A DNA stretch of 64,000 nucleotides, from NCBI RefSeq assembly GCF_044324875.1, contig NZ_CP172185.1, one strand, 5' to 3'. Position 1 is the stretch's first letter, and each line of letters opens with the position of its first letter. This stretch comes from Escherichia coli. GTDB lineage: Bacteria; Pseudomonadota; Gammaproteobacteria; Enterobacterales; Enterobacteriaceae. This document shows positions 8,619-25,366 of this stretch, piece by piece. The position numbers and the translations under genes were made by a program. The notes beneath the pieces were generated by a model that saw nothing but the letters and a program-made list of their open reading frames with translations, made no database searches and was not told where the DNA came from.

Positions 8619-9252
8619 CAGGGCTTTCACTGAACTGGACCGCACAATGCGGACCATCAGCAGCGGACTTTCCCCGCAGGCACTGAGCCGCATTGCCGGA
8701 CAGCTTGCCAGAGAGGTTCGCCGCAGCCAGCAACAGCGTATGCGCGCACAGAAAGCGCCGGACGGTACACAGTGGGAGCCGCGCAGACGGCGCATCAGCC
8801 GCCTGCAGCAGCGTATCCGCTTCATCCGGAACAACGAAACCCGCACGCTGAAAAACTGGCATCACGACGTGAGCAGACACGGACGCACCATCACCGGCTG
8901 GGATGAGGATAAGGGAGGCCTGCGCACCTTCTACCGGGAGGATATCACCCGTTATATTGAAATCAGCACCCGCCGCATCAGCCGCAACGCCACAAAGACC
9001 GTACCGATGTTTGCGAAGCTGCGCACGGCACGCTACCTGAAAGCCAGAGGCGATGCGGGCGGTCTGACCGTCGGTTATGACGGCGTGGCGGCACGCATTG
9101 CCCGCGTTCACCAGTTCGGGGAGCGCGACCGGGTGGCCGCAGGGGTGTATACGGATTATCCGGCCCGTGAACTTCTTGGAATAACACCGGCAGATGAACG
9201 GCTGATTGCCGACAGGCTACTGAACCGCATTGCGGGAGAAATATCATCATGA
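8611..9252 (+). CDS. S: Tail completion / virion morphogenesis protein, P2 gpS-like
   Basis: 213-aa ORF; GTG at 8611 (next in-frame ATG 8647); overlaps R stop and V start. Confidence 0.7.
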   Translation: MTDRAFTELDRTMRTISSGLSPQALSRIAGQLAREVRRSQQQRMRAQKAPDGTQWEPRRRRISRLQQRIRFIRNNETRTLKNWHHDVSRHGRTITGWDEDKGGLRTFYREDITRYIEISTRRISRNATKTVPMFAKLRTARYLKARGDAGGLTVGYDGVAARIARVHQFGERDRVAAGVYTDYPARELLGITPADERLIADRLLNRIAGEISS

Positions 9253-10180: not shown

Positions 10181-11077
10181 ATGCCTTCCGTTGACCTGTC
10201 ACAGTTACCGGAACCGGCCATCATCGCGCAGCCGGATTTTGAGTCCATCCTGGCAGACATTAAAACCATGATGGTGAGCTCCTTCCCGGAAGAATACCGC
10301 GCCGCCGTCACCCGTGCCCTTACTCTGGAATCCGAGCCATTGAACATCATTTCCCAGGCCATGGCCTTTCGTGAAATGCTGCTTCGCCAGCGCATCAATG
10401 AAGCCGCCCGCGCCTGCATGCTCAGCCACAGCCGGGGCAGTGACCTGGACAATCTGGCCGCCAACAACAACACCCGCCGCCTGGTCATTCATCCGGCCAC
10501 TGATACCACGGAAGCAGTGATGGAAAGCGACACATCGCTGCGTCTGCGTGCCCAGTCAGCCTGGGACGGCCTGAGTGTGGCCGGACCGTCCGGCGCGTAT
10601 GAGTATTTTGCCCGGAGCGCAAGCGGTCTTGTCCGTGATGCGCGCGCCATCAGCCCGTCACCGGCCACAGTCACCGTCTCCATCCTGTCAGCAGACGGTG
10701 ACGGCACCGCCGGTGAGGCGTTACTGAACACGGTGCGCACCGCCCTGAATGCCGAGAACGTGCGCCCGGTTGCCGACCGCCTGACTGTGCAGAGTGCTAC
10801 CATCGTGAACTGGGTAATGGAAGCGAAGCTGTATTTTTATCCAGGGCCGGAGTCTGAACCCATGCTTGCGGCCGCTGACGCCGCTTTCCGTGCATGGCTG
10901 GCAGACCAGGGCCGTATCGGTCAGGACGTGGCCCTGTCAGCCATCACTGCAGCGCTGCATGTTCACGGTGTCCAGCGCGTTGAGGTCATAAAACCCACGC
11001 AGAACATCACCATCAGTGACACTCAGGCAGCCAGATGTACCACATTCAGCATCAGCGAAGGAGGACGCAATGAGTGA
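10181..11077 (+). CDS. J: Baseplate assembly protein, P2 gpJ-like
   Basis: 298-aa ORF following W; size and position. Confidence 0.8.
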   Translation: MPSVDLSQLPEPAIIAQPDFESILADIKTMMVSSFPEEYRAAVTRALTLESEPLNIISQAMAFREMLLRQRINEAARACMLSHSRGSDLDNLAANNNTRRLVIHPATDTTEAVMESDTSLRLRAQSAWDGLSVAGPSGAYEYFARSASGLVRDARAISPSPATVTVSILSADGDGTAGEALLNTVRTALNAENVRPVADRLTVQSATIVNWVMEAKLYFYPGPESEPMLAAADAAFRAWLADQGRIGQDVALSAITAALHVHGVQRVEVIKPTQNITISDTQAARCTTFSISEGGRNE

Positions 11078-11798
11078 CAGGAAAAAAACAGACAGCGCAC
11101 AGCACAGTACATCACTGCTTCCACCGTCCGCAGGGCCATTCATGCGCGCCACAGAGGCGACAGGAGTACGCATCAGTGCCATACCGGTGGACGCCGACAC
11201 CCTGTGGTCGCCGGACCGCTGCCCTGCTCACCTCCTGCCCTACCTTGCATGGGCATGTTCCGTTGACCGCTGGGACCGCAACTGGCCGGAAGAGACCAGA
11301 CGACAGGTGATTGGCCAGTCCTGGAAGGTACACCGCCAGAAAGGAACGGTCAGCGCACTGAGGGAAACAGCCGCAGCATTCGGTTATGAGATGACCATCA
11401 GTGAATGGTGGGAGCATGGAGGGCAGCCGGGCACCTTTACTGTGACCATCGGGGCAGACACTCAGGGCATCGGCCCTGAAACATGGCTGGAGATGGAGGA
11501 TCTGCTCAATGATGCACGTCCGGTTTCACGTCATATGACGGGGCTTTATGCCGCCCTGCGTTCTGGCGTGACGGTTTACTGCGCTGCGGGAGCAGGCTGT
11601 GATGAGCTTGTAACCATTCACCAGAAAGCTCGCGCCTCCCTGGCGGGCCAGGTGACCATCATCGCAGCAGGAGACACACACACAACCGACAGTGTGACCG
11701 TACTGCCGGGGGTTCCGTCAGGTATGTACGGGGAGATCTGTATCCGTACCGGCGCAGGTATATTCGTGAGTGAGATTGTGGAGGTTATCACCTTATGA
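11070..11798 (+). CDS. I: Tail/baseplate protein, P2 gpI-like
   Basis: Start set at ATG 11070 (MSDRKK...) overlapping J 3' end; directly precedes tail fibre gene. Confidence 0.7.
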   Translation: MSDRKKTDSAQHSTSLLPPSAGPFMRATEATGVRISAIPVDADTLWSPDRCPAHLLPYLAWACSVDRWDRNWPEETRRQVIGQSWKVHRQKGTVSALRETAAAFGYEMTISEWWEHGGQPGTFTVTIGADTQGIGPETWLEMEDLLNDARPVSRHMTGLYAALRSGVTVYCAAGAGCDELVTIHQKARASLAGQVTIIAAGDTHTTDSVTVLPGVPSGMYGEICIRTGAGIFVSEIVEVITL

Positions 11799-12910
11799 AC
11801 ACCGATTTTTATTCCGTTCTGACGGATGCCGGGCTGAAAAAACTGGCGGCAGCCGCAGCATCAGGGAATCAGATGAAAATCACCCATATGGCTGTAGGCG
11901 ACGGAAACGGAAAAGCCGTAACACCCGGCAGGGCCGACACCAGGCTTGTCAGGGAAAAATACCGTGCGCCACTGAACAGTCTGGAAGAAGACACAGAGAG
12001 ACCGGGGCATGTTATCGCAGAAATGGTGATACCTGAAAAACAGGGAGGGTGGTGGATCAGAGAATTCGGATTATTCGACGAAGACGGCGGAATGATTGTT
12101 ACAGGCAAATTTCCTGACACATGGAAGCCTGCACCTGGTCAGGGTGGAGCACGACTGATATCAGTGAAAGTGGTTGTGGCAGTATCACATACAGAAAACA
12201 TTGTGCTGAAAGTGGATCCTTCTGTTGTCATGGCAACCCGGGAATGGGTGAACACAAAAGCAGAGCAGTTAAAGAAAGAGCTCAGACAACCTGATGCAAC
12301 CACCAAAACAAAAGGCATTGTTCAGCTTAGCAGTGACATCAACAGCACCTCTGAAACGCAGGCTGCCACCCCCGGAGCGGTAAAAGCCGTGAATGATCGT
12401 GTGGACGGAAAACAGGACGCGGATCCCACGCTCACATCTCTGTCCGGGAAAAATGCACAGCAACTGAGGCAGCTTCTGGGGCTGGGCACGCTTGCCACCC
12501 TGAACAGGGGCACCGGTTCAGGGAATGTGCCGGACATGAGTCACTTTGCGAGTAAAAAAGCAGACTACGGTTACCAGTGTTTTCCTGGCGGCATAATGAT
12601 CCAGTGGCTGCGGATCCCCTCAGACCACACAGGAAGAGCTGTCAGTCAGGAAGCCCGGGTGGCACTAAGCGGCGTGCGACTGTTTTCAGTGGAGGGTAAC
12701 TGGAACGGTAATAACATGATTAAGACCCTGGCAAACTACCAGTGGCCGAGAGTTTTCGGGGCAATTTATGCGACCGTTGCAACCAGGAATCACGGATCTG
12801 CATGGCGAGTATATCCGGTGTCCGCGAACAAGGATGTGCGTGTCGTATCCATTGCCTGGGCGGGAGAAGGTACAGATGACACTTATGTGGTTGGGGTGGG
12901 AAGAGTATGA
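11795..12910 (+). CDS. H: Tail fibre protein, P2 gpH-like N-terminus with short divergent C-terminal domain
   Basis: N-terminus ...LKKLAAAAASGNQMKITHMAVGDGNG... and internal QLSSDINSTSETQAATPGAVKAVND match the recalled conserved P2 H regions; only 371 aa. Confidence 0.75.
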   Translation: MNTDFYSVLTDAGLKKLAAAAASGNQMKITHMAVGDGNGKAVTPGRADTRLVREKYRAPLNSLEEDTERPGHVIAEMVIPEKQGGWWIREFGLFDEDGGMIVTGKFPDTWKPAPGQGGARLISVKVVVAVSHTENIVLKVDPSVVMATREWVNTKAEQLKKELRQPDATTKTKGIVQLSSDINSTSETQAATPGAVKAVNDRVDGKQDADPTLTSLSGKNAQQLRQLLGLGTLATLNRGTGSGNVPDMSHFASKKADYGYQCFPGGIMIQWLRIPSDHTGRAVSQEARVALSGVRLFSVEGNWNGNNMIKTLANYQWPRVFGAIYATVATRNHGSAWRVYPVSANKDVRVVSIAWAGEGTDDTYVVGVGRV

Positions 12911-13353
12911 AAATGATGTGGTCGCCGTCTGTGGGCGGTTTTTTTGGTGAAGACAGCAGCCATATACCGGAAGATGCGGTGGAGGTTGATGAATCGATGT
13001 GGAGCAGGATGATGGAGGGACAACTTGAGGGAAAAATTATCGTTAACGGCCCTGACGACCTGCCTGTTCTGGAAGAGCGTCCGGGACCGGGGCCAGAAGA
13101 ATACCGGCATCAGGCTCGCCTTGAGCTTGCTGACCTTCGCCGACAGGGGCTGGAACACATAGAGTCGATGCGCTGGCGTGACAAAGCGGTCATGAACAGG
13201 CTGGGAGAAGAGGAGAAGCAGGAGTATAACGCCTGGCTTGACTGGCTCGACGCGCTTGACAGTACGGACATATCAGGGGCACCGGATGTGGTGTGGCCGG
13301 TGATGCCCGTCACGGTGGTTCCTGAACATCCTCAGAAAAAATTGCCGGAGTGA
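12907..13353 (+). CDS. G: Tail fibre assembly chaperone, P2 gpG-like
   Basis: 148-aa ORF overlapping H stop (ATGA); position after tail fibre gene. Confidence 0.65.
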   Translation: MKMMWSPSVGGFFGEDSSHIPEDAVEVDESMWSRMMEGQLEGKIIVNGPDDLPVLEERPGPGPEEYRHQARLELADLRRQGLEHIESMRWRDKAVMNRLGEEEKQEYNAWLDWLDALDSTDISGAPDVVWPVMPVTVVPEHPQKKLPE

Positions 13354-13360
13354 ACAGCCT

Positions 13361-13386
13361 CCGGCCTGAGACTGCACTCAGGCCGG
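13361..13386. terminator. GC-rich hairpin between convergent G and U genes (candidate terminator, weak U-tract)
   Basis: Perfect 10-bp inverted repeat ccggcctgag/ctcaggccgg with 6-nt loop; followed by aaattctgtt on plus strand. Confidence 0.4.
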
Positions 13387-13394
13387 AAATTCTG

Positions 13395-13841
13395 TTATCT
13401 GCCAGCATTGCGGATGATACCCGAAAGCATATCAGACACCGACGGCATCATTCGCTCCCGCAAATCCTCATCACAGCGTTCCATACTGACAGTGAACTCA
13501 ATTTTTTTGGCCTTACCGTGGCGGTCAAGTTCGCTTCGCGTTGTGCGGACAGCCGTTATCACATACATGCCGTATATCTGCCCCACACCGTCAATCAGCG
13601 GCCATGGGCGGCCAGTGTAAGCCTGCGTCGTTAAAAGGCTGAGGGAAACCTCACCGCCGGTAATTTCGGGATAAAGCACACCGGACAACGTGATCTGGTC
13701 GTCACCCGCCCCGATATACTGCCAGCTGGCCGAACGATTGATGCGTTCATTTTTAACGTGGCGCCAGGTTTTATTATGTTGCAGTTGTTGATGAGGCAGC
13801 GTACGCAACTCAAAAACAAACATGCCGTAAATCATCATCAT
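13395..13841 (-). CDS. U: Tail protein, P2 gpU-like
   Basis: 148-aa ORF downstream of tape measure on minus strand. Confidence 0.75.
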   Translation of the reverse strand: MMMIYGMFVFELRTLPHQQLQHNKTWRHVKNERINRSASWQYIGAGDDQITLSGVLYPEITGGEVSLSLLTTQAYTGRPWPLIDGVGQIYGMYVITAVRTTRSELDRHGKAKKIEFTVSMERCDEDLRERMMPSVSDMLSGIIRNAGR

Positions 13842-13852
13842 GCGAGGTACTC

Positions 13853-16800
13853 CTAATCTCTGTCACGGAAACTACCGACTGTCTGGCGGATACGGCGTTC
13901 CATTTCCGCACGGACGGCATCACCCACCATTTTTGCCAGTTCGCGCGGGTTTTGCGTGTGAACATCATGCAGGTGAATATGCAGTTCGCCAGTTAATCCC
14001 CATGGTGCCGGATCACTCTGACGCGGTCGGGGCGATGCGGGGGATATGGGCTGGCGCACAGCCTCAACCACCGGACGGGATGTTGCCGTTACGACGGGTG
14101 TCATTACCGGCGCAATATTGCCGGACACTACCGGTTTAATTACCGGGGAGAGCGTCGGTATAACATCGCCAGCCATAACCGGTTTGATCGCTGGCGAAAT
14201 AACCGGAGCAACAGACTCAGCCATGACGGAACTGACAGGCTGAGGCGCTCTCACTATGCCAGCATCGATAACCAGCATGAGCTCGCGTACTGCCTCAAGG
14301 ACAGGACGGGATATTGCCGCCATCACTGGTGTCATTAGCGGGGAGAACGTCGGCATGACATCGTGAGTCATAACCGGTTTGATCACCGGCGAAACCACCG
14401 GCGTAATATTACCGGACAGTACCGGACGGACGACCGGAGGAATAACCGGCACATTATTCACGGACACCACCGGCTTCACGACCGGCGACACGTTCGCCGT
14501 GGTGGATATCAGCGGCGAAACACTGACAGGCGGTGGCGCTGGCAGCGGTGGCAACGAAGGCACACTGACCGACGGCACCTGCGGCAGTCTGACAGGTGGC
14601 TCACTGACACTACCCGGTAACAGGGAAGCTGCGCGGTTAAAGCGTTCCTCCTTCCACTCACCACGAACGGCCAGCGCTTCCGGCAGGTTTTTAAAGATAA
14701 TATCGCCGGGACCAGTGCGTTTTTTCGCCTGTTTCGCCTCATCCAGCAGGCCACCGGTGTTATCGACGATTTTATTCAGGCGACGCATGGTGCCGGTATT
14801 CTCCCCCGTCAGCGGAGCAGTTGCTGCAGGTGCAGGTACTGGCGGCTTTTTGTCTTTGTCATTTTGCGGCGGATTAATGACATTAACATCCGCCAGGAGC
14901 ATGGCGGCTTTCTCGTTCAGCAGCTCCTTCTGCTTCAGCTCTTCCGCCTTTTTCCGGGCGCGCTCAACCGCCGACGGAATCAGCCCGAGTTTTTCCAGCA
15001 CCCGGGTTAATGAGTCAATCAGCAGCGTAACCGGACCGGTCACCAGATTGCTGATAAACTCCCCGACCTTCTGCCCGAACGTCCGCCCGGCTTCCGTGCA
15101 CTTGTCCAGCTCATCCTTTGTTGTGCTTACCGGCGCGAACAAATCCACGAACCACTGCCACACACGCCCGATTGTCTGCCCGACATACTCAAACAATGGT
15201 CCCAGTGGTGCCACAGCCTCGCGCAGTGGCGTAAGCCCCTGCCACAGGCCGGACAAGAACCCGCCCACGACAGCCTTCAGCTGGTCCCAGTGCCGCCAGA
15301 TAAGCACTGCCGCACCGACCAGTGTCGCCACCACAAGGCCCACCGGACTTAACAGAAAACCCAGCGCCCCGCCAAGTGCGCCCACCGCACCACTCACCAT
15401 CCCCCACAGTGCGGGCAGACCTGACAGTCTGAGCGCCAGTATTCCGATACCGCGCCCCAGTGAAATCAGTGCGCCGCCAGGTGAAGTGAACGCAGCCAGC
15501 AGACCACCACGCAGCGCGCCAAGTCCCGCCTGCACACCACGAAGCCGCCCCGCAACTACGCCCAGCAGTGCAGCAAACCGTCCGGCACCGGAGGTGATAC
15601 CGACAAACAGCACGCGCCAGCCACCGATACCGCCCAGCGGACCACCGAGTACGCCGCGCAGCTGCGTCAGTAACGGCAGCGCACGACCGAGGCCGGATGT
15701 GCCGGTCAGCAGGGCAAACCCAAGACGCAGTTTTGCCAGCGGCCCCATCAACACACCAGTGGCAAGTGACAGCGCCCCCATGGCCGCAACCGCAGCCAGC
15801 AGTGCACCACCGGCAATCAGCAGTTGTTTTGTCAGTTCAGGGTGCGCCTGGGCCAGCGCGGTGACTTTCGCAATAACCCGGGTGAACGACTGCGTGACAG
15901 AACGCAGCGGCCCGTCAACGAGGTCAGCGACACGGATACGCAGCCCTTCCCATGCGCTGTTCAGTGATTTCAGGTCGCCGTCCAGGTTGTCCGCCATGAT
16001 TCTGGCGTTTTCTTCCAGTTCGCCGTTCGCTGCCTGAATCTCACGCGTCAGGCGCGGCAGGTTTTTTTCGCCTGCCTGTTCAACCAGGCTCATCAGGGAG
16101 ACATACGCCTCCTGCCCGGCAATATCTGAAAAGAACGAGACTTTTGCCGCGTTACCGTATTTACGGGTGGCCTGATACAGCTCATACAGGATATCTTCCA
16201 TCGGGCGCATGTTCCCGTAAGCATCCTGCGTTTCCACGCCCAGCTGTTTCAGCGCCTTTGCTGCCGCTTTAGGCGGGTTCACAAGGCGGGACAGACTGGA
16301 GCGCAGCGCCGTACCAGCATCACTGCCACGTATCCCCATCGACCCAAGCAACCCGGTCATGGCTGCGGTCTGTTCAAGAGACAGACCGAGTGAGGCGGCG
16401 ACCGGTCCCGTATATTTCATCGTCTCACCAAGCCCGCGCAGGTCGGTATTGGTGCGGGTGAACGTTGCGGCCAGCGTGTCACCCACGCGGTTCATCTGGT
16501 CGGCAGACAACCCGAACTGCGTAAGGATATTTGAGCTGATATCGGCCGTCTGACCGAGGTCCATGCCGCTGGCCGTTGCCAGATTCAGCACGCCGGGAAG
16601 AGCCGCCTGTATCGCCTGCGGCGTGAACCCCGCCATGGCAAGGAACGCCTGACCGCTGGCAGCATCACCTGCGGTAAACTGCGTTTCGGAGCCGAGTTTA
16701 AGCGCCTGTTCGCGCAGCGCCTTAAACTGCGGACTGTTTTTGTCAATACGGGTCAGCGCCTGGACGCGCGACATCTCCTTACCAAAACTGACCGCCGGTT

Positions 16801-17431
16801 GCAGGAAACGCCCGGCCGCATAGCCACCTGCCGCTGCCGTGCCGACTGCCGTAAATCCACCCGCTTTCAGTTTTCCCGCCATCTCCTGAGCGCGGAAATA
16901 TTGCTGGCGTGCCTGCGTGACGCGTGCCAGAGTCTGCCGTTCACGTTCCAGCTGTTCGTTGTATTGCTGTGTTCGCCGTATGGCCTGTTGAATGGTGTTG
17001 TCACTGCCGGAAAGCGCAATACCGTGACGCCGCAGCTCACCACCCAGTTCGCGCATTCGCTGAACTTCACGCGCACGGACCTCATTGAGACGCTCAAGTT
17101 TGAGGCTCAAATCGTTCATCAGCTTTTTCTGTTTGTCAGACAGCACGGTTCCGGCGCGCTGAATTTGCTGAAGTGCGCTTAACTGGCGTTGTGCCCGGGC
17201 AATGCCGTTTCCGGCCTTGTTTGCAGCCTCGCGGGCGCGATCAAATGAACGGGCGTGGCGTTCCAGGTTTTTGATCGCACCCTGCGTTCTCTGTATGGAG
17301 TCGCCAAGCTGGCCCATCATGCGACGGGCGTTTTCGGTGGGACGGGTCAGCCTGTCAACAGCGCTGAAGGCGACCCGTATATCAAGCGTTTTCATGCTCT
17401 GCGTTCCCGCTGCGAAGGGCCGCCCGCTCAC
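13853..17431 (-). CDS. T: Tail tape measure protein, P2 gpT-like (1192 aa)
   Basis: Very long ORF; coiled-coil N-terminal part, Gly/Ala-rich hydrophobic central segment, Pro/Val-rich repetitive C-terminus; follows E/E' as in P2. Track start is GTG 17431 with SD GAGGTGG; alternative ATG at 17395. Confidence 0.85.
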   Translation of the reverse strand: MSGRPFAAGTQSMKTLDIRVAFSAVDRLTRPTENARRMMGQLGDSIQRTQGAIKNLERHARSFDRAREAANKAGNGIARAQRQLSALQQIQRAGTVLSDKQKKLMNDLSLKLERLNEVRAREVQRMRELGGELRRHGIALSGSDNTIQQAIRRTQQYNEQLERERQTLARVTQARQQYFRAQEMAGKLKAGGFTAVGTAAAGGYAAGRFLQPAVSFGKEMSRVQALTRIDKNSPQFKALREQALKLGSETQFTAGDAASGQAFLAMAGFTPQAIQAALPGVLNLATASGMDLGQTADISSNILTQFGLSADQMNRVGDTLAATFTRTNTDLRGLGETMKYTGPVAASLGLSLEQTAAMTGLLGSMGIRGSDAGTALRSSLSRLVNPPKAAAKALKQLGVETQDAYGNMRPMEDILYELYQATRKYGNAAKVSFFSDIAGQEAYVSLMSLVEQAGEKNLPRLTREIQAANGELEENARIMADNLDGDLKSLNSAWEGLRIRVADLVDGPLRSVTQSFTRVIAKVTALAQAHPELTKQLLIAGGALLAAVAAMGALSLATGVLMGPLAKLRLGFALLTGTSGLGRALPLLTQLRGVLGGPLGGIGGWRVLFVGITSGAGRFAALLGVVAGRLRGVQAGLGALRGGLLAAFTSPGGALISLGRGIGILALRLSGLPALWGMVSGAVGALGGALGFLLSPVGLVVATLVGAAVLIWRHWDQLKAVVGGFLSGLWQGLTPLREAVAPLGPLFEYVGQTIGRVWQWFVDLFAPVSTTKDELDKCTEAGRTFGQKVGEFISNLVTGPVTLLIDSLTRVLEKLGLIPSAVERARKKAEELKQKELLNEKAAMLLADVNVINPPQNDKDKKPPVPAPAATAPLTGENTGTMRRLNKIVDNTGGLLDEAKQAKKRTGPGDIIFKNLPEALAVRGEWKEERFNRAASLLPGSVSEPPVRLPQVPSVSVPSLPPLPAPPPVSVSPLISTTANVSPVVKPVVSVNNVPVIPPVVRPVLSGNITPVVSPVIKPVMTHDVMPTFSPLMTPVMAAISRPVLEAVRELMLVIDAGIVRAPQPVSSVMAESVAPVISPAIKPVMAGDVIPTLSPVIKPVVSGNIAPVMTPVVTATSRPVVEAVRQPISPASPRPRQSDPAPWGLTGELHIHLHDVHTQNPRELAKMVGDAVRAEMERRIRQTVGSFRDRD
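14060..14500. repeat. Imperfect tandem duplication (~230-bp unit) inside the 3' part of the tape measure gene
   Basis: gcctcaaccaccggacgggatgttgccg...gtgtcattaccgg (14061-) vs gcctcaaggacaggacgggatattgccg...gtgtcattagcgg (14292-); encodes repeated ...PVIKPVM..DV.PT.SP...SRPV.EAVR... units. Confidence 0.6.
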
Positions 17432-17908
17432 GCCAGGCGACCACCTCGCCGGGATCCATCAGGAAGATTTCAGCGGGAGACCAGTTGAAAATAACGGCGA
17501 TATCCGCCACAAAGTCTTCAATATGCTCAAAGGGCACGACGGTTATCAGCCTGCCGTCGCCGCCACGCTCTTCCCGCCAGAGTCCTGACCGGCCAAAAAA
17601 TTAACCGCCACCCCGCACAGCTGAATAAAATCAGCGGACCCCATGCGCTTAAGCAGAACCTCGTCCAGTCGCGGCGAAGTGACGCGCGGGAGTAACTCAA
17701 ACATCGCGTCCGTTTTCATGTTCAGCACGTCAAGCAGTGACAGCCCGCGCAGTGAACCGGCCTGCTGTACAGCAGGCGTGATTTCCACATACGTGATTTT
17801 TTTGTTACCGAGCACAAGGGGCGTTTTCAGCGTCACGCCGCGCTCACTGGTCACGTCCGCCGCATCAGCACCGTCAGTAACAGGGGCAACAACCGGATTT
17901 TCTTTCAT
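17382..17908 (-). CDS. E+E' fusion product from programmed -1 ribosomal frameshift (predicted ~175 aa)
   Basis: After slipping on T TTT TTG the -1 frame stays open for 70 codons (GRSGLWREERGGDGRLITVVPFEHIEDFVADIAVIFNWSPAEIFLMDPGEVVAWRERAALRSGNAEHENA) to TGA at 17382-17384, overlapping the start of T; triplet-by-triplet manual translation. Confidence 0.6.
17546..17908 (-). CDS. E: Tail assembly chaperone, P2 gpE-like (zero-frame product)
   Basis: 120-aa ORF ending ...VNFLAGQDSGGKSVAATAG; the NFL codons are AAT TTT TTG (slippery site). Confidence 0.75.
   Translation of the reverse strand: MKENPVVAPVTDGADAADVTSERGVTLKTPLVLGNKKITYVEITPAVQQAGSLRGLSLLDVLNMKTDAMFELLPRVTSPRLDEVLLKRMGSADFIQLCGVAVNFLAGQDSGGKSVAATAG
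17594..17602 (-). other. Slippery heptanucleotide T TTT TTG (codons AAT TTT TTG) for the E/E' -1 frameshift
   Basis: Plus strand ccaaaaaatt at 17593-17602; reverse complement AATTTTTTGG in the E reading frame. Confidence 0.65.
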
Positions 17909-17958
17909 GCATAAAACCTCAAATCAGGGGGCGACGCCGCGCGCCGCCGTGGAAAACA

Positions 17959-18477
17959 TTAACCACCAAGACCAATCGCCGAGCGCACGCGGTCCGGGAA
18001 GACGCTTTTGCCGTCCTTGCGTTCGATGTGGTTCAGTAAATCAATCTCCAGCACCGGACGGTCGTTAATGCTGAGTTTGTAGTAGGTACTTTTGACCGCA
18101 TAGGTGTGAGACGTGACCTCACCCTGTTTGGCCTCCCCGGTATCAATTTCCGTCACGCGACCGCGAAGCTCAATCTCGTACAGGTCACTCTGTTCTTCAT
18201 CGTTGTAGTACTCACCGACAAAGCGCAGCAGCGTACCGTCAATCGTTCCGCCGTACTTGAGGAACAGTTCGCGGGTCGGCCCGCCCATGGTGAAACTCGC
18301 ATCCAGCGCGCCGTCATCCAGGCCAAGGTCGATATTTACTGCACCGGCCATACCACCACCGCGATAGGCTTCCGTTTTACGGGTCAGTTTGGGGGGCGTG
18401 AAGCCGGTCACCCTGCCAATCTGGTTCACCCCGTCAGTAAACAGCGTGAACACCCTGAGATTTTTTGGTACGGCCAT
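17959..18477 (-). CDS. FII: Tail tube protein, P2 gpFII-like
   Basis: 172-aa ORF downstream of sheath gene; size and context. Confidence 0.85.
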   Translation of the reverse strand: MAVPKNLRVFTLFTDGVNQIGRVTGFTPPKLTRKTEAYRGGGMAGAVNIDLGLDDGALDASFTMGGPTRELFLKYGGTIDGTLLRFVGEYYNDEEQSDLYEIELRGRVTEIDTGEAKQGEVTSHTYAVKSTYYKLSINDRPVLEIDLLNHIERKDGKSVFPDRVRSAIGLGG

Positions 18478-18779
18478 TAAGCACCTCCAAGCGTCGCAAA
18501 TGCAGGACCAAAGAATTCATCAGTAAACGTCTGGTAAAGTTCCATATCCTCAAGCGGCGGAACGGGCGTGTACTTGTAGCGGATACGCACGCGTCCCTGA
18601 CGAAGTTCCGTGGTGCTGTTATCCACCACGTCATACCAGCACTCCGCACCAACGAGACGTCCTGACGTAACCAGCGCATCCAGTTTTGCGCGAATTGCGC
18701 TTAACACGTCTTTCACATTAGCAGGGGTCAGCGGGGCATCAATCGTTTCAAACTGCGCTTCCGCAACAGAATCAGCCAG

Positions 18780-18786
18780 CACCTGA
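18780..18786. repeat. Target-site duplication CACCTGA (left copy) of the IS21-family element
   Basis: Identical 7-mer at 21426-21432; reconstructed FI reading frame needs exactly one copy. Confidence 0.7.
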
Positions 18787-18988
18787 TGCAAAATGGCATC
18801 TGAATCGATCGCAGTTTGGCATTCGAATCGATCATGATTTGGCATCCATCTCCGATCACAGTTTGGCATCACAATCGATCACGATTTGGCATGCTTCCGA
18901 TCATTGATTGGCATCCTGCCAGTCACTCCGGGAATTAACTCTTTTCACCACAGTCTCCATTGCCGTGTTTAAACCAGTGGAGACGTCA

Positions 18989-20554
18989 ATGTCCAGAAAG
19001 AGAAAATCCAGGAGCACTATGGAAACCTGTTTTAAGATCCTTCAGCTCAAGTTCGACAAGAAGCTGACTAACCGTTGTATCGGACTGACGTTACACATCA
19101 GCGCCTCAACCGTTTTTGAGGTTCTTGCCCGCTTCAAAGCCTCTTCTCTGTCATGGCCATTACCTGCTGATATATCCCATGACACGCTGGAGAAACTCAT
19201 TTTTCCGCCCAAAGACACCTTTGCATCAGAGCTTGTAATGCCTGACATGTTGTACTTCGATACGGAAATGAGAAAACCAGGTGTGACGCGGCAACTGTTG
19301 TGGATGGAATACAAGGCACAGGCGGGTAACAAAGCGATGGGATACTCGCACTTCTGCCGTTGCTACCGGGAGTGGAAAAAAACGCGACGTCTCTCCATGC
19401 GCCAGGAGCATCGTGCCGGCGAAAAGCTTTTTATCGACTTCTGTGGTCCTACGGTTCCTGTTATTAATCCGGACACCGGTGAGATACGCCGCGTGGCAAT
19501 CTTCGTGGCCGTAATGGGGGCGTCCAACTATACCTACGTTGAAGCGTGCGAAGGTCAGGACATGATGTCATGGTTAAATGCCCACAGCCGTTGCCTGACC
19601 TTCCTGGGCGGCGTACCGAAGCTGCTCATCCCCGATAACCTCAGAAGCGCAGTGAAAAAGGCCGATCGATATGAGCCTGTCATCAACGACAGTTATCAGG
19701 CACTGGCTGAGCACTATGGCACGGTTATCATCCCGGCCCGACCACGCAAACCTAAAGATAAACCAAAAGCAGAAAACGGCGTCCTCATCGTTGAACGATG
19801 GCTTCTTGCCCGCATCCGTAATGAAACCTTCCACACGCTCAGGGCGCTGAATGCGCGCCTTAGGGAGTTACTGACAGACATGAATAACCGGCCAATGAAG
19901 GGGTACGGCAATCAAACCCGTGCAGAACGCTTCCGCATACTGGATGCGCCAGCACTCTCTCCGCTGCCTCTGGCACCTTATGAATACACGGAATACAAAG
20001 CTGTGAAGGTTGGCCCTGACTACCACGTTGAATATGCCCGTCACTGGTACTCCGTTCCACACGAACTGGTCGGTCAGCGTCTGTCACTGAAGGCGGGGCA
20101 GTCGGTGGTACAGCTCTGGCACAAGGGGCAGTGTGTGGCGCAACATCCGCGCAGCACACATGAATATAAACACACAACCAATCCGCTTCACATGCCAGAG
20201 CGCCACCGGCAGCACGGGACATGGACACCGGAACGCCTGATCGAGCAGGGAAAACGTACGGGCCCGTCCACAGGCCGGGTGGTTGAATCCATGCTGAAGG
20301 CAAAACCCCATCCGGAACTGGCTTATCGTGCAGTTCTGGGGCTGCTGGCACTTCAGAAAAAATACGGCCCGGAACGGCTGGAAAAGGCCTGTTACGTTGC
20401 CCTGCACTATAACGCCCCTGACAGACGCTTTATCGACAATCTGCTGCGTCACCATCGGGAGAACCTGGAGCTTCCATTATCCCGCCAGGGCGAACAACAT
20501 CCGGCATATGCTTCAGAGCATGAAAACCTGCGTGGTCCGGGCTACTACCACTGA
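18989..20554 (+). CDS. istA: IS21-family transposase IstA
   Basis: Start set at ATG 18989 after GGAG (track begins at a TTG at 18908); N-terminal HTH-like segment, ~520 aa; immediately followed by istB. Confidence 0.8.
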   Translation: MSRKRKSRSTMETCFKILQLKFDKKLTNRCIGLTLHISASTVFEVLARFKASSLSWPLPADISHDTLEKLIFPPKDTFASELVMPDMLYFDTEMRKPGVTRQLLWMEYKAQAGNKAMGYSHFCRCYREWKKTRRLSMRQEHRAGEKLFIDFCGPTVPVINPDTGEIRRVAIFVAVMGASNYTYVEACEGQDMMSWLNAHSRCLTFLGGVPKLLIPDNLRSAVKKADRYEPVINDSYQALAEHYGTVIIPARPRKPKDKPKAENGVLIVERWLLARIRNETFHTLRALNARLRELLTDMNNRPMKGYGNQTRAERFRILDAPALSPLPLAPYEYTEYKAVKVGPDYHVEYARHWYSVPHELVGQRLSLKAGQSVVQLWHKGQCVAQHPRSTHEYKHTTNPLHMPERHRQHGTWTPERLIEQGKRTGPSTGRVVESMLKAKPHPELAYRAVLGLLALQKKYGPERLEKACYVALHYNAPDRRFIDNLLRHHRENLELPLSRQGEQHPAYASEHENLRGPGYYH

Positions 20555-20570
20555 CAGAAGGAACAACAGT

Positions 20571-21326
20571 ATGAGTGATAACCTGTTAAACAAACTGACC
20601 CAACTGAAACTCCCGGCGATGGCCGGGAGCCTGATACGGCAGCGGGAAACGCCTCAGACCTACGACGAACTGTCGTTCGAGGAAAGGCTGACGCTGCTGG
20701 TTGATGACGAGCTTCTGAGCAGGGAAAACAGCCGTGTGGCACGGTTGAGAAAAAATGCCGGCCTGAAATACCAGGCAACACCGGAAGGGCTGCGCTATCC
20801 GGCCTCAAGAGGTCTGCGGGCTGAACAGATGAGAGAACTGCTGAACGGCCACTACATAACCCACAGGAAAAACCTGCTGATAACCGGTCCGACAGGATGT
20901 GGCAAGAGCTGGATAGCCAATGCGCTGGGCGAACAGGCATGTCGACAGAAACACAGCGTCCGGTACTGTAGAACCGGGCGATTACTGGAACAACTGGCTC
21001 AGGGACGTGTTGATGGCAGCTGGCTGAAATATCTGAAACAGTTGCAAAAAATACAGGTTCTAATCCTGGACGATCTGGGGCTGGAACAGTTAAGTAACGC
21101 CCAGTGTAATGACCTTCTGGAGCTCATAGAGGATCGTTACGGACAAAGCAGCACGATAGTGGTAAGCCAGTTCCCGGTAGATAAATGGCATGGTCTGATG
21201 GAGAACCCAACAACAGCAGATGCCATCCTGGACAGACTGGTACATAACTCACACCGAGTGGTCCTTCAGGGAGAGTCACTGAGGAAAAATCCCCCGGTAG
21301 TGGAAAGCAGCGAAAAAACGCGTTAA
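20571..21326 (+). CDS. istB: IS21-family ATP-binding helper protein IstB
   Basis: Start set at ATG 20571 after AAGGAA; Walker A GPTGCGKS and Walker B ILDDLG motifs, 251 aa. Confidence 0.85.
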   Translation: MSDNLLNKLTQLKLPAMAGSLIRQRETPQTYDELSFEERLTLLVDDELLSRENSRVARLRKNAGLKYQATPEGLRYPASRGLRAEQMRELLNGHYITHRKNLLITGPTGCGKSWIANALGEQACRQKHSVRYCRTGRLLEQLAQGRVDGSWLKYLKQLQKIQVLILDDLGLEQLSNAQCNDLLELIEDRYGQSSTIVVSQFPVDKWHGLMENPTTADAILDRLVHNSHRVVLQGESLRKNPPVVESSEKTR

Positions 21327-21425
21327 AAAGCGGTAGAAAAAGTTAAGTTCCCGGTTGATCGAATGGATGCGAATCGCTGATCGGACTTCGATGCCAATCC
21401 GTGATCGAATAGAGCGGAATACGCA

Positions 21426-21432
21426 CACCTGA
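21426..21432. repeat. Target-site duplication CACCTGA (right copy) of the IS21-family element
   Basis: See left copy at 18780-18786. Confidence 0.7.
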
Positions 21433-22482
21433 GCGGTTCGCGTGTACACCTCAAAGATATACGCCTTCGTTTCCGGCGTACGGTTGCCCCAGAAGCGGAA
21501 ACCGTTACGGCGAATGATGGTGGTGATTTCCTTGTTGTTGAGATTGTTGGCATCGCTGTCTTCGGACTGAAGGGACCAGAACACCGGGCTGGAAATACCC
21601 AGCACATTTCTTACCGGCACGTTGGACAGCGATTTATGCCAGCCCTGTTCGTGGTCAATACGTGCACGTAAACCGCAGGCGTACGCCGCAGCCGGGAAGA
21701 CCTCATTAGCGCCGGATTTCGGGTTATGGGCGATGAAGTCAGGCCAGAGCAGCATAAGTTCGCGCTCGTTAAATCTGGCGCGGTAGCTGATTGCATCAGC
21801 GGGCTTCTTGCAGTTGTGACAGCCCGCGTAGACAAATGCGCGAAGTTTTTCTGCAATTACACACAGGGATTTTGTGACAGCTTCAGTATCCAGTCCGGGC
21901 GCTGCGATGATGCGCGGACGGTAACCGATGGCATCATCCTGTTCAGCTATCAGAAGTGCATACATACCGGTATAATTACCGTCGCCATCCGTGCCACCAA
22001 TGACATACTGGTCCTGCGTTTTGTGTGGGTATACAGGATGTGCATCTTCAGACTCATCAATACCAAAAAATGCCCTGTCTTCAGGATCCAGATGACCGAA
22101 TGATGTAACTCCTGTATCCGGGGCGCCCTGAGAACTGGCATCAGGAACGCGCACCACAATCACCTTCGTGCTCACCTGGTCGGCGACAGCCTTAAGCGAT
22201 TTGTAAAGCGTCCCCTTTGTGCCGGCCTTACCCAGCACATCACTGACGCGGGTCAGCAGTGTGGGTTTGTTCAGCGGGAACAGAGTTTCATCCGCGTCAT
22301 CTGCCGTAGCCACAATACCAATAACACTGGAATCCACATCATTAATGGCGGTGGCAAGGCCGGTACTTTCCCTTACGCGCGCACCATGAAAGCGTGTTTC
22401 ACTCATATGTTTCACCCTTGTCTGGCTGGTTGATTTTGCGTAATCATTACCCACGATGCCGCCGGTATCATCTCCTGCCCGT

Positions 22483-22500
22483 TCTCACCGTTCGCTTACA
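22483..22500. promoter_or_regulatory. TCT-N12-ACA box (one mismatch to TGT-N12-ACA) in divergent FI/D intergenic region
   Basis: Shares the 16-mer TTCGCTTACAACAAAC with the P/O intergenic box; centred ~85 bp from FI start and ~76 bp from D start. Confidence 0.4.
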
Positions 22501-22566
22501 ACAAACAGCCGTTCACCACGGTCGCACGCCGTGAAAACATGACGGGACACACCACGAGGGCAGACC

Positions 22567-23658
22567 ATGACCGACCTGTTAATCAACGTTCCGTCACCGG
22601 ATATCGAAATCACCATCAACAACAACAGACTCCGTAACGTCACGGAGCGGCTCATGACGCTGTCACTGACCGACAACCGGGGCTTTGAGGCGGACCGCGT
22701 CACCCTGACCATTGACGACGCGGACGGGCAGCTTCAGCTGCCACAGCGCGGCGCACGCCTGAACGTGATGATTGGCTGGCGCGGGGAGGCGCTGGTTAAC
22801 AAGGGTGTCTACATCGTTGATGAAGTGACGTGGGAAGGCCCGCCGGACAAACTGACCATCACCGCCAGCAGCGCCGATTTTCGCGAAGAGTTCAACGTGA
22901 AGCGTGAAGTCTCCTGGCACGACGTGACGGTAAAACAGGTTGTGTCAGCCATCGCGCACCGCTACGGCCTGAAAGCACAGATAAGCGATATCCTCATGGA
23001 TATCGAAATTGACCACGCAGACCAGACCGAAGAGAGCGATATATCCTTCCTGACCCGCATGGCTGAAATGCTGGGTGCGATTGCCACCGTAAAAAACGGC
23101 AGCCTGTTATTCATTCTGCCGGGTGGCGGAACCGGGCCGGACGGAAAAGCCCTGCCTTCGTTCGCCATTACCCGCAGCAGCGGCGACAGTCACCGCTTTC
23201 GCATTGCTGACCGTGATGCGTATACGGGGGTCCGGGCGCACTGGCTCGATCTGAAGTTCGGGCAAAAGAAAAAAGTGAACGTGAAGCGACGCAGGGAAGC
23301 CGGGAAACAGAAACAGGAGAAGAGCAGCAGCCGGGAAGGTGATTACATGGAGGGCGCGGAAGGGAACGTCTACGTTCTGCGCAGGACTTACCAGAATGAA
23401 GAAACCGCACGACGTGCAGCAGCTGCAAAGTGGCAGGAACTACAGCGGGGCGCGGCATCATTCTCCATCACGCTGGCGCGCGGTCGTGCCGACCTGTACC
23501 CTGAAATGCACGGCAGGGTAACAGGTTTTAAAAGCGAGGTGGACAATCAGGACTGGATTATTGCCAGGGTGGAGCACAGCATAGATGAAAGCGGCTTCAC
23601 CACACAACTGGAGCTGGAAGCGAAAATCCCCGAATGGATAGCAGATTCAGGCGGATAA
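22567..23658 (+). CDS. D: Tail protein, P2 gpD-like
   Basis: 363-aa ORF; size and position before ogr; leader CACGAGGGC shared with O gene leader. Confidence 0.8.
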   Translation: MTDLLINVPSPDIEITINNNRLRNVTERLMTLSLTDNRGFEADRVTLTIDDADGQLQLPQRGARLNVMIGWRGEALVNKGVYIVDEVTWEGPPDKLTITASSADFREEFNVKREVSWHDVTVKQVVSAIAHRYGLKAQISDILMDIEIDHADQTEESDISFLTRMAEMLGAIATVKNGSLLFILPGGGTGPDGKALPSFAITRSSGDSHRFRIADRDAYTGVRAHWLDLKFGQKKKVNVKRRREAGKQKQEKSSSREGDYMEGAEGNVYVLRRTYQNEETARRAAAAKWQELQRGAASFSITLARGRADLYPEMHGRVTGFKSEVDNQDWIIARVEHSIDESGFTTQLELEAKIPEWIADSGG

Positions 23659-23701
23659 AATTAAAATGAGCCATCTCCACTCAGCCAGATAAGGAGAAGC
23701 C

Positions 23702-23953
23702 ATGTTCCGTTGTCCCCTGTGCGGTGCATCCGCACGTATCCGCACCAGTCGCAATGAAAATGATTCAGGCACAGTTCGCCTGAAGTACTACCAGTGCAAT
23801 AACCTCGAATGCGGGATCGGCTTTACCACACTGGAGGGTTTTAACAAATTCACATCAAAACGCGCCCCGTCGCCGCAGGGTACAGAGCGGATACCGTGGG
23901 AAGATTTTCCGGGATCTCACAGGGGGAATGCTCAGATGAATCTTGATATTTAA
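23702..23953 (+). CDS. ogr: Ogr/Delta-type zinc-finger late transcription activator
   Basis: MFRCPLCGASARIRTSR...YYQCNNLECG: CxxC...CxxxxC arrangement and N-terminal similarity to recalled P2 Ogr. Confidence 0.8.
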   Translation: MFRCPLCGASARIRTSRNENDSGTVRLKYYQCNNLECGIGFTTLEGFNKFTSKRAPSPQGTERIPWEDFPGSHRGNAQMNLDI

Positions 23954-24871: not shown

Positions 24872-24969
24872 GGGTGCCTGCCACCTGACAACAGGAAGGG
24901 GTGTCCATTATCCATGATATACAAACGAAAAGTCTTGTCTTTTGCCCGCCGTTGCGCGGGCTTTTTTTT
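24872..24969 (+). ncRNA. Candidate small RNA cassette 3 (promoter TTGAGA-17-TAGATT at 24837-24865; terminator 24944-24969)
   Basis: Terminator stem GCCCGC/GCGGGC with different loop (CGTTGC); 5' body ACCACGGGTGCCTGCCACCTGACAACAGGAA ~85% identical to cassette 2. Confidence 0.4.
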
Positions 24970-25366
24970 ATCCAAGAACCCTGTCTGCAGCAACACGCGC
25001 CAGAAATCCAGAGCGGCTACCGTATTCAGGATGAGACTCAACGAACTGATCAATGCGACGAATAAGCAGAGATGGCAGGGTAACATTGATTTTTTCCGAT
25101 TTCCCCATCAGGCGGGACACATCCACCTCAACGAGCGCCCACACTGCATCACTGTATTCAGGATCTGATTGCCATTCATCAAGATTTGTAGCGACAGGGA
25201 TAGACTCACCAGATTCAACCAGTAATTCTACGTGTGCCTCAATGGCTTCACGGGCACTGTCTACCGCATCCTGAAAACTATCACCGCCAGAAAAACAGCC
25301 GGGCAGATCTGGGACGCGAACACCAAAAGATGAATCCCCCCGGTCAATAGCGATTGCATATAACAT
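24968..25366 (-). CDS. hicB: HicB-family antitoxin (N-terminal HicB fold plus C-terminal ribbon-helix-helix)
   Basis: 132-aa ORF MLYAIAIDRGDSSFGVRVPDLPGCFSGGDSFQDAVDSAREAIEAHVELLVESGESIP...KINVTLPSLLIRRIDQFV; GGAGG 5 nt before ATG; 22 nt downstream of hicA. Confidence 0.7.
   Translation of the reverse strand: MLYAIAIDRGDSSFGVRVPDLPGCFSGGDSFQDAVDSAREAIEAHVELLVESGESIPVATNLDEWQSDPEYSDAVWALVEVDVSRLMGKSEKINVTLPSLLIRRIDQFVESHPEYGSRSGFLARVAADRVLG

Follow-up and report, generated by a model that had tools for sequence, protein, structure and literature searches.

The 64,000-nucleotide stretch of Escherichia coli DNA analysed here (the window; contig NZ_CP172185.1 of assembly GCF_044324875.1) contains a prophage of the P2 family, and this report concerns its genes H and G, which encode a tail fibre and its putative tail-fibre assembly (Tfa) chaperone. 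Both genes are on the plus strand, H at 11795–12910 (371 amino acids) and G at 12907–13353 (148 amino acids), and the open reading frames (ORFs) lie exactly where they were called by the first-pass annotation, an earlier reading of this DNA made from the sequence alone. Both ORFs are intact, and the N-terminal 217 residues of H match Pfam and PHROG tail-fibre profiles. The two genes belong to a tail operon read throughout in the plus direction, with starts at 9249 (V), 9827 (W), 10181 (J), 11070 (I), 11795 (H) and 12907 (G), in which V, W, J and I, the genes upstream of H, are of the P2 type (Pfam Baseplate_J and Tail_P2_I). The stop codon of I and the start codon of H overlap in an ATGA at 11795–11798, and the stop of H and the start of G overlap at 12907–12910. 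Downstream of G, on the opposite strand, is gene U (Phage_P2_GpU). G ends at 13353 and the convergent gene U at 13395, which leaves only 41 bases between them, and this space holds a GC-rich hairpin found by a terminator scan (13360–13387; 11 pairs, 8 of them G-C) that is probably a two-way terminator.

The H protein has four parts. Residues 1–149 (11795–12241, plus strand) are a PF12571 Phage_tail_fib domain (E-value 1.9e-50; 171 bits against a cut-off of 23), and this N-terminal part of H is 41% identical to H of phage P2, 47% to that of phage P88 and 51% to that of phage Cartapus; the DNA that encodes it has the lowest G+C content of the region, 0.498. A single PF03406 fibre repeat, KGIVQLSSDINSTSETQAATPGAVKAVND, occupies residues 169–206 (12299–12412, plus; E 2.7e-16) and aligns with fibre S of phage Mu, the sole match to H in a search of PDB sequences (E about 0.01). 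Residues 207–258 (12413–12568, plus) form a linker with the motif GKQ.D.TLT.LSGK...LGLG...GTG..VPDM, which is conserved in a 60-sequence alignment (A2), and residues 259–371 (12569–12907, plus) form the putative receptor-binding tip, a divergent domain similar to Gp53-like_C and the R-pyocin "foot" and predicted to have a lectin fold. P2 H has 669 amino acids, in line with the first-pass annotation, and P2 G has 175. The same annotation held that about 200 N-terminal residues of H resemble P2 H and that the remainder of H does not, and this is what BLASTP finds: residues 26–218 of H align with residues 27–219 of P2 H (41% identity, E 7e-47), all other segments give E>0.4, and there is no full-length similarity that would argue against a swapped C-terminus. 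The PHROG tail-fibre profiles likewise all end at about residue 217 of H, residues 218–371 have no Pfam match even at E≤1, and NCBIfam has no family for H or for G.

The G protein carries a PF02413 Caudo_TAP domain at residues 19–134 (E 2.1e-15, 57.4 bits against a cut-off of 22.1), matches phrog_188 (E 3.7e-33), and is 47% identical to the Tfa protein of Cartapus, a phage with a homologous fibre tip. P2 G also belongs to PF02413 (E 5e-38), although the two proteins show no significant pairwise similarity by BLASTP (E 0.96). There is also no pairwise similarity between G and P88 G, and a search of PDB sequences with G found nothing meaningful. The first-pass description of G as unrelated to P2 G is therefore right at the level of pairwise comparison and too strong at the level of the family, and by its profile matches G is best described as a diverged member of the Tfa family to which P2 G belongs. 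A passage in PMC9608196 (citing North et al. 2019) describes Tfa proteins in which the N-terminal domain is variable and attaches to the fibre tip, the C-terminal one being conserved and responsible for trimerisation. G is similar to other Tfa families only at residues 64–134 and over its full length only to the Cartapus protein, and so it follows this variable-then-conserved pattern. In R-pyocins, soluble expression of fibre fragments needed their Tfa (PMC6363177).

The prophage that carries these genes shares 99.7% identity with one in E. coli 24A16CRGN010, and its closest cultured relatives are the P88-like phages of the genus Xuanwuvirus, a member of the P2 family; its V, W, J, U, FII and D proteins are 69%, 73%, 80%, 85%, 78% and 78% identical, respectively, to those of P88. 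The nucleotide homology to P88 breaks off halfway through I, at 11360, and is regained within U, at 13453, and between these points the sole P88 homology within H and G is the fibre repeat (12309–12412), which is 76–78% identical to both P88 repeats. The G+C content is 0.534 in H–G and 0.57–0.61 in the flanking tail genes. An exchanged host-range module had been proposed at this locus by the first-pass annotation, and both the loss of backbone homology across H–G and the cassette described below bear this out; the C-terminus of H is indeed included in the exchange, but the replaced stretch is larger than had been thought, reaching from the middle of I through all of H and G.

The most direct evidence for exchange is a 1.0-kb cassette at 12309–13307 (plus strand), comprising the fibre repeat, the linker, the tip and roughly the first 134 residues of G, that is about 99% identical in nucleotide sequence (98.9% by megablast) to DNA of E. 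coli strain LR-31. Similarity to LR-31 drops abruptly beyond both ends of the cassette (query positions 515–1513 match); on the left the boundary falls at H residue 172, where the fibre repeat begins, and on the right near residue 134 of G. In strain LR-31 the cassette completes a 329-amino acid fibre ORF that has a different N-terminus, with no PF12571 domain and with two fibre repeats, in a prophage whose gene order (tube, tape measure, X, D, V, W, J, I, fibre, Tfa) differs from that of the window prophage. The H–G DNA was matched in only two of 5426 complete E. coli genomes, the second of which is LR-31 with the cassette alone, and megablast against 50,697 phage records gave no match. Between the two copies of the cassette H has six nonsynonymous and one synonymous differences and G one nonsynonymous and two synonymous, numbers too small to interpret. 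A related tip appears to be portable as well: the Cartapus-type tip is found behind at least four different N-termini (in Cartapus and in database proteins P0003, P0005 and P0007), and one of these arrangements (locus L006) belongs to a myovirus-type baseplate cluster with a different organisation, where a Caudo_TAP gene again comes next. We note that the LR-31 fibre (L002 9613–10602) appears in the NCBI annotation as two "incomplete" pseudogene fragments; a continuous 329-amino acid ORF, which starts at a TTG or at an ATG two codons on and ends with the same tip as H, spans both, and the gene is probably intact and mis-annotated.

The position of the junctions suggests how such an exchange may take place. 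The left junction is the only stretch kept at the DNA level among these fibres, and the right junction is the conserved end of the Tfa gene. Since the junctions coincide with the conserved repeat and the conserved Tfa end, we infer from the sequences that homologous recombination at these two conserved patches moved the cassette; the fibre repeat is the left recombination joint of this mobile cassette.

Beyond a small E. coli lineage, the last 100 or so residues of H have no sequence relatives that could be detected except the Cartapus-type tip, at 32% identity (over 127 amino acids). When the tip alone was compared with phages by tblastn, only Cartapus covered it and the other matches were linker stretches of 30–60 residues. 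A word-indexed protein search returned one fragment (P0001) and missed the full-length cluster, which was found in a later search, and an exhaustive HMMER comparison with 1.84 billion representatives gave 88 relatives at E≤1e-3, nearly all of them covering only the linker and the entry hairpin. The remote relatives of the tip match PF21882 Gp53-like_C with E-values down to 1.5e-14, and the Cartapus-type tips reach only 15–17 bits against this family, under its gathering score of 24.9. The entry hairpin of Gp53-like_C, GYQxLPGGxIxQWG, is present in the H tip as GYQCFPGGIMIQWL, and alignment A2 shows its P, G and Q-W to be conserved; hhalign of the tip subfamily against canonical Gp53-like_C gives a probability of 96.5% over the first 19 columns only (GYQ.FPGG.I.QW). 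In alignment A2 the tip is collinear with Gp53-like_C from the linker motif, through this hairpin, to the last strand, and it has a counterpart of the FPxxFP motif (WPRVFG) as well as the terminal G-x motif. A lineage-specific insertion adds about 28 columns to it when it is compared with canonical Gp53-like_C tips, and about 17 when it is compared with the Cartapus type; the core of this insertion, H residues 287–306 (12653–12712, plus; tip residues 83–102), is poorly predicted, with a predicted local distance difference test score (pLDDT) below 50, and is a candidate specificity loop.

AlphaFold modelling of the whole of H from its single sequence was useless (pLDDT 37). With the 60-sequence alignment the tip gave a model with a pLDDT of 74.9 and a predicted template modelling score (pTM) of 0.63, in which most predicted strands have pLDDT values of 80–93. 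This model is matched by 37 viral models at E≤1e-3, several of them annotated as gp53-like, and its neighbours are the neighbour set published for the pyocin foot, a proposed binder of lipopolysaccharide (LPS) (PMC6363177), and for gp53 (bioRxiv 10.1101/518761). As far as these models can be trusted, the tip probably has a lectin-like fold; that it binds a saccharide receptor is slightly favoured.

Comparison with better known systems places the module as follows. P2 (NC_001895) has H and G at the same operon position, in the order V-W-J-I-H-G, with PF12571 and PF03406 in H and with G in PF02413; it differs in its much longer H, whose long shaft includes Gp34_trimer and whose tip is unrelated, and in having the FI-to-U tail genes on the same strand as H. 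P88 is the closest cultured relative in its backbone and has the same inverted FI-to-U block and divergent D gene, but its H has 764 amino acids and a P2-like tip, and between G and U it carries an inverted G'/H' pair and a DNA invertase. Cartapus (Elveevirus; gp19 and gp20) is the only cultured phage with both a recognisably homologous tip and a homologous Tfa, and it shares the N-terminal domain, the linker motif and the C-terminal ending of H, whereas its H has 473 amino acids (about 100 extra shaft residues), its tip insertion is shorter, it has an invertible segment with a Gin-like invertase, and its backbone proteins are only 40–54% identical to those of the window prophage (25–54% counting the tape-measure protein). 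The R-type pyocins resemble the window prophage in having a P2/CTX-type contractile tail and a fibre (PA0620 / PALES_06171; PDB 6CL5, 6CL6 and 6CXB) that needs its downstream Tfa (PA0621), and their foot domain, with a lectin fold, is the proposed binding site for the LPS core (PMC6363177); their fibres, however, are about 700 amino acids long with knob domains, sequence identity is 10–17%, and the likeness is one between the foot and a predicted model. Finally, gp53 of Acinetobacter phage AP22 (PDB 4MTM), the founder of PF21882, is a trimeric fibre that ends at its very C-terminus in a lectin-type beta-barrel head, as predicted for H; the H tip lacks a Pfam match, only its entry hairpin is demonstrably homologous, and the function of gp53 is itself unproven.

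We conclude, with a probability of roughly 0.8, that H and G serve a P88-like E. coli prophage as its host-recognition module and were gained by horizontal exchange. By analogy with P2, Mu and the R-pyocins, H would form a compact trimeric tail fibre, in which residues 1–149 would dock the fibre on the I/J baseplate, a single fibre repeat and a short linker would come next, and residues 259–371 would form a small lectin-like beta-sandwich tip that binds a host surface saccharide, most likely in LPS. G would be its dedicated Tfa chaperone, with a variable N-terminal half fitted to this tip and a conserved C-terminal half that would drive trimerisation from the fibre C-terminus. The module probably arrived by recombination at the fibre repeat (left) and at the conserved Tfa end (right), and in doing so it would have replaced the longer, invertase-switched H and G of the P88-like relatives with a single fixed specificity. 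In P88, exchange of residues in the C-terminus of H altered the host range (PMC5285337).

Several points weigh against this conclusion. The module is rare among complete E. coli genomes. The H tip does not match PF21882 even at E≤1, hhalign finds no signal over the roughly 100 residues past the QW motif (probability 0.15%), and the assignment of the fold is partly circular in that the alignment behind the model is dominated by canonical Gp53-like_C sequences. The six-to-one pattern of differences from LR-31 in H fits relaxed constraint as well as it fits diversifying selection. Lastly, the window copy of the prophage is defective and cannot make tails, because an insertion sequence (IS) element of the IS21 family (18787–21425), flanked by a 7-bp target duplication (CACCTGA) and containing IstA (ORF 18908–20554; E 1.1e-84) and IstB (ORF 20328–21326; E 2.2e-76), splits the sheath gene FI into an N-terminal part (21276–22454) and a C-terminal part (18477–18872).

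These points bear on three other explanations, of which the most serious concerns the tip. The last 110 residues of H could be some other domain, a protein-receptor adhesin or a new fold, that has kept only the entry hairpin; this would account for the loss of profile similarity beyond the QW motif and for the silence of Pfam and NCBIfam, it agrees with an insertion core of 20 residues that cannot be predicted, and it is helped by the dependence of the lectin model on an alignment with canonical family members. We nevertheless consider it unlikely, given that the collinearity of the tip runs on to the last strand and takes in WPRVFG and the terminal G-x motif, that most predicted strands are modelled with high pLDDT, and that viral models annotated as gp53-like are among those matching the tip. 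Less probable again is that H is a decayed remnant of a longer P88- or Cartapus-type fibre that lost its shaft by deletion between repeats and no longer works as a fibre. The defective state of the prophage would fit such decay, as would the 6:1 substitution pattern, the roughly 100 internal residues that H lacks relative to Cartapus H while N-terminus and tip still align, and the number of fibre repeats, which is several in P88 H, two in LR-31 and one here; in addition, the NCBI pipeline flags the neighbouring genes I and T as incomplete in the sister strain 24A16CRGN010. Yet the H ORF is intact and is joined to I and G by overlapping stop and start codons, and it retains every element that a fibre would need, namely attachment domain, repeat, linker, tip and a cognate chaperone. 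Proteins identical to H are found on 240 contigs and proteins identical to G on 462, in every case from E. coli, and nearly all listed members of the H cluster, which has 77 members, are 371 amino acids long. Independent fibres of equally short architecture are known, such as P0019, which has 377 amino acids and PF12571, PF03406 and PF21882 domains. The IS21-family element is absent from the 24A16CRGN010 prophage, whose sheath gene is intact, and residues 14–213 of the 242 in I align with essentially the whole 201-amino acid Cartapus I.

The remaining explanation is that H and G are still phase-variable, with a serine invertase encoded elsewhere in the genome flipping or exchanging the tip in trans. 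Both of the nearest phages, P88 and Cartapus, carry an invertase and inverted H'/G' genes immediately after G. The linker of H occupies the position of the invertase crossover site in relatives, its LGLG lying where the Cartapus site sits (the inverted crossover cores of Cartapus, L003 13044 and 14575, fall exactly on the codons for this motif), and many tip homologues are alternative segments that begin inside such sites (P0008, P0010 and P0016), which explains tip-like database proteins with odd N-termini such as MMPVSRYLCIFINVGLG. In the 64-kb window, however, tblastn with the Cartapus invertase gives no match at E≤10, the Gin-type crossover core AAACCNNGGTTT is not found near H or G with one mismatch allowed, and the DNA at the LGLG codons, CTGGGGCTGGGC, is unlike the Cartapus cores. 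There is also no inverted alternative tip or chaperone, U following G after the short hairpin-bearing spacer. The first-pass annotation, which saw neither an invertase nor an invertible segment, was thus correct; the absence is a real difference from P88 and Cartapus, an invertible-segment reading of H and G was rejected on these grounds, and switching in trans appears very improbable.

The genes that surround the module are as follows. Gene I (11070–11798, plus; 242 amino acids from its ATG) encodes a baseplate protein (PF09684 Tail_P2_I, E 1.9e-44; TIGR01634, E 1.3e-44) that is 46% identical to P2 I, 59% to P88 I and 40%, over 200 amino acids, to Cartapus I. It is longer than its homologues in P2 (176 amino acids) and Cartapus (201), neither of which has anything that corresponds to its last 30 or so residues. 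The annotation of strain 24A16CRGN010 labels I a partial pseudogene, an interpretation that is ruled out by its alignment with nearly all of Cartapus I. On the other side of the module, the U-T-E-FII-FI block occupies 13395–22454 on the minus strand, D and ogr lie on the plus strand (22567–23953), and FI and D diverge from an intergenic region at 22455–22566. The minus-strand orientation of FI to U was considered as a possible rearrangement next to G and ruled out, this being the normal layout of the P88-like genus. The tape-measure protein T (13853–17431, minus) has 1192 amino acids against about 935 in P88, and its C-terminal third contains recurring Pro/Val motifs (PVVSP, VIKPV and similar), especially at about 13900–14700; a tandem repeat finder run on the DNA of 11000–17500 found nothing. 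T carries its "incomplete" flag in the sister strain even though the two sequences differ by substitutions only.

The identity to the 24A16CRGN010 prophage ends at 24969, and the next gene, at 24968–25366 on the minus strand, encodes a HicB-like antitoxin (PF15919, E 8.6e-46). Past it are ORFs that by eye resemble ihfA and pheT; in 24A16CRGN010 the prophage adjoins copA instead, and these different neighbours indicate that the same prophage lies at different chromosomal sites in the two strains.

That tail fibres are mosaics in which tip and chaperone cassettes can be exchanged has been textbook knowledge since P2, Mu and P1 were compared in the early 1990s, and H and G are a typical mosaic host-range module of the P2 family, with a rare divergent gp53-like tip and a matched chaperone. 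They change no concept, and their modest value is practical. At 371 and 148 amino acids they are among the more compact P2-type host-range modules, and their junctions, resolved to the base pair at the fibre repeat and the Tfa end, show where such modules can be cut and pasted. The H entries in the databases, which are named only "phage tail protein" and come from hundreds of contigs of E. coli, could be relabelled tail fibres with a gp53-like tip. More tentatively, the tip, with its insertion of about 28 residues, may define a new receptor-binding specificity. Repeat, linker, tip and chaperone move together as one self-contained unit between at least two unrelated baseplate types, and if the specificity is indeed new, this small unit could be used to redirect phages or pyocins towards an uncharacterised E. 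coli surface glycan.

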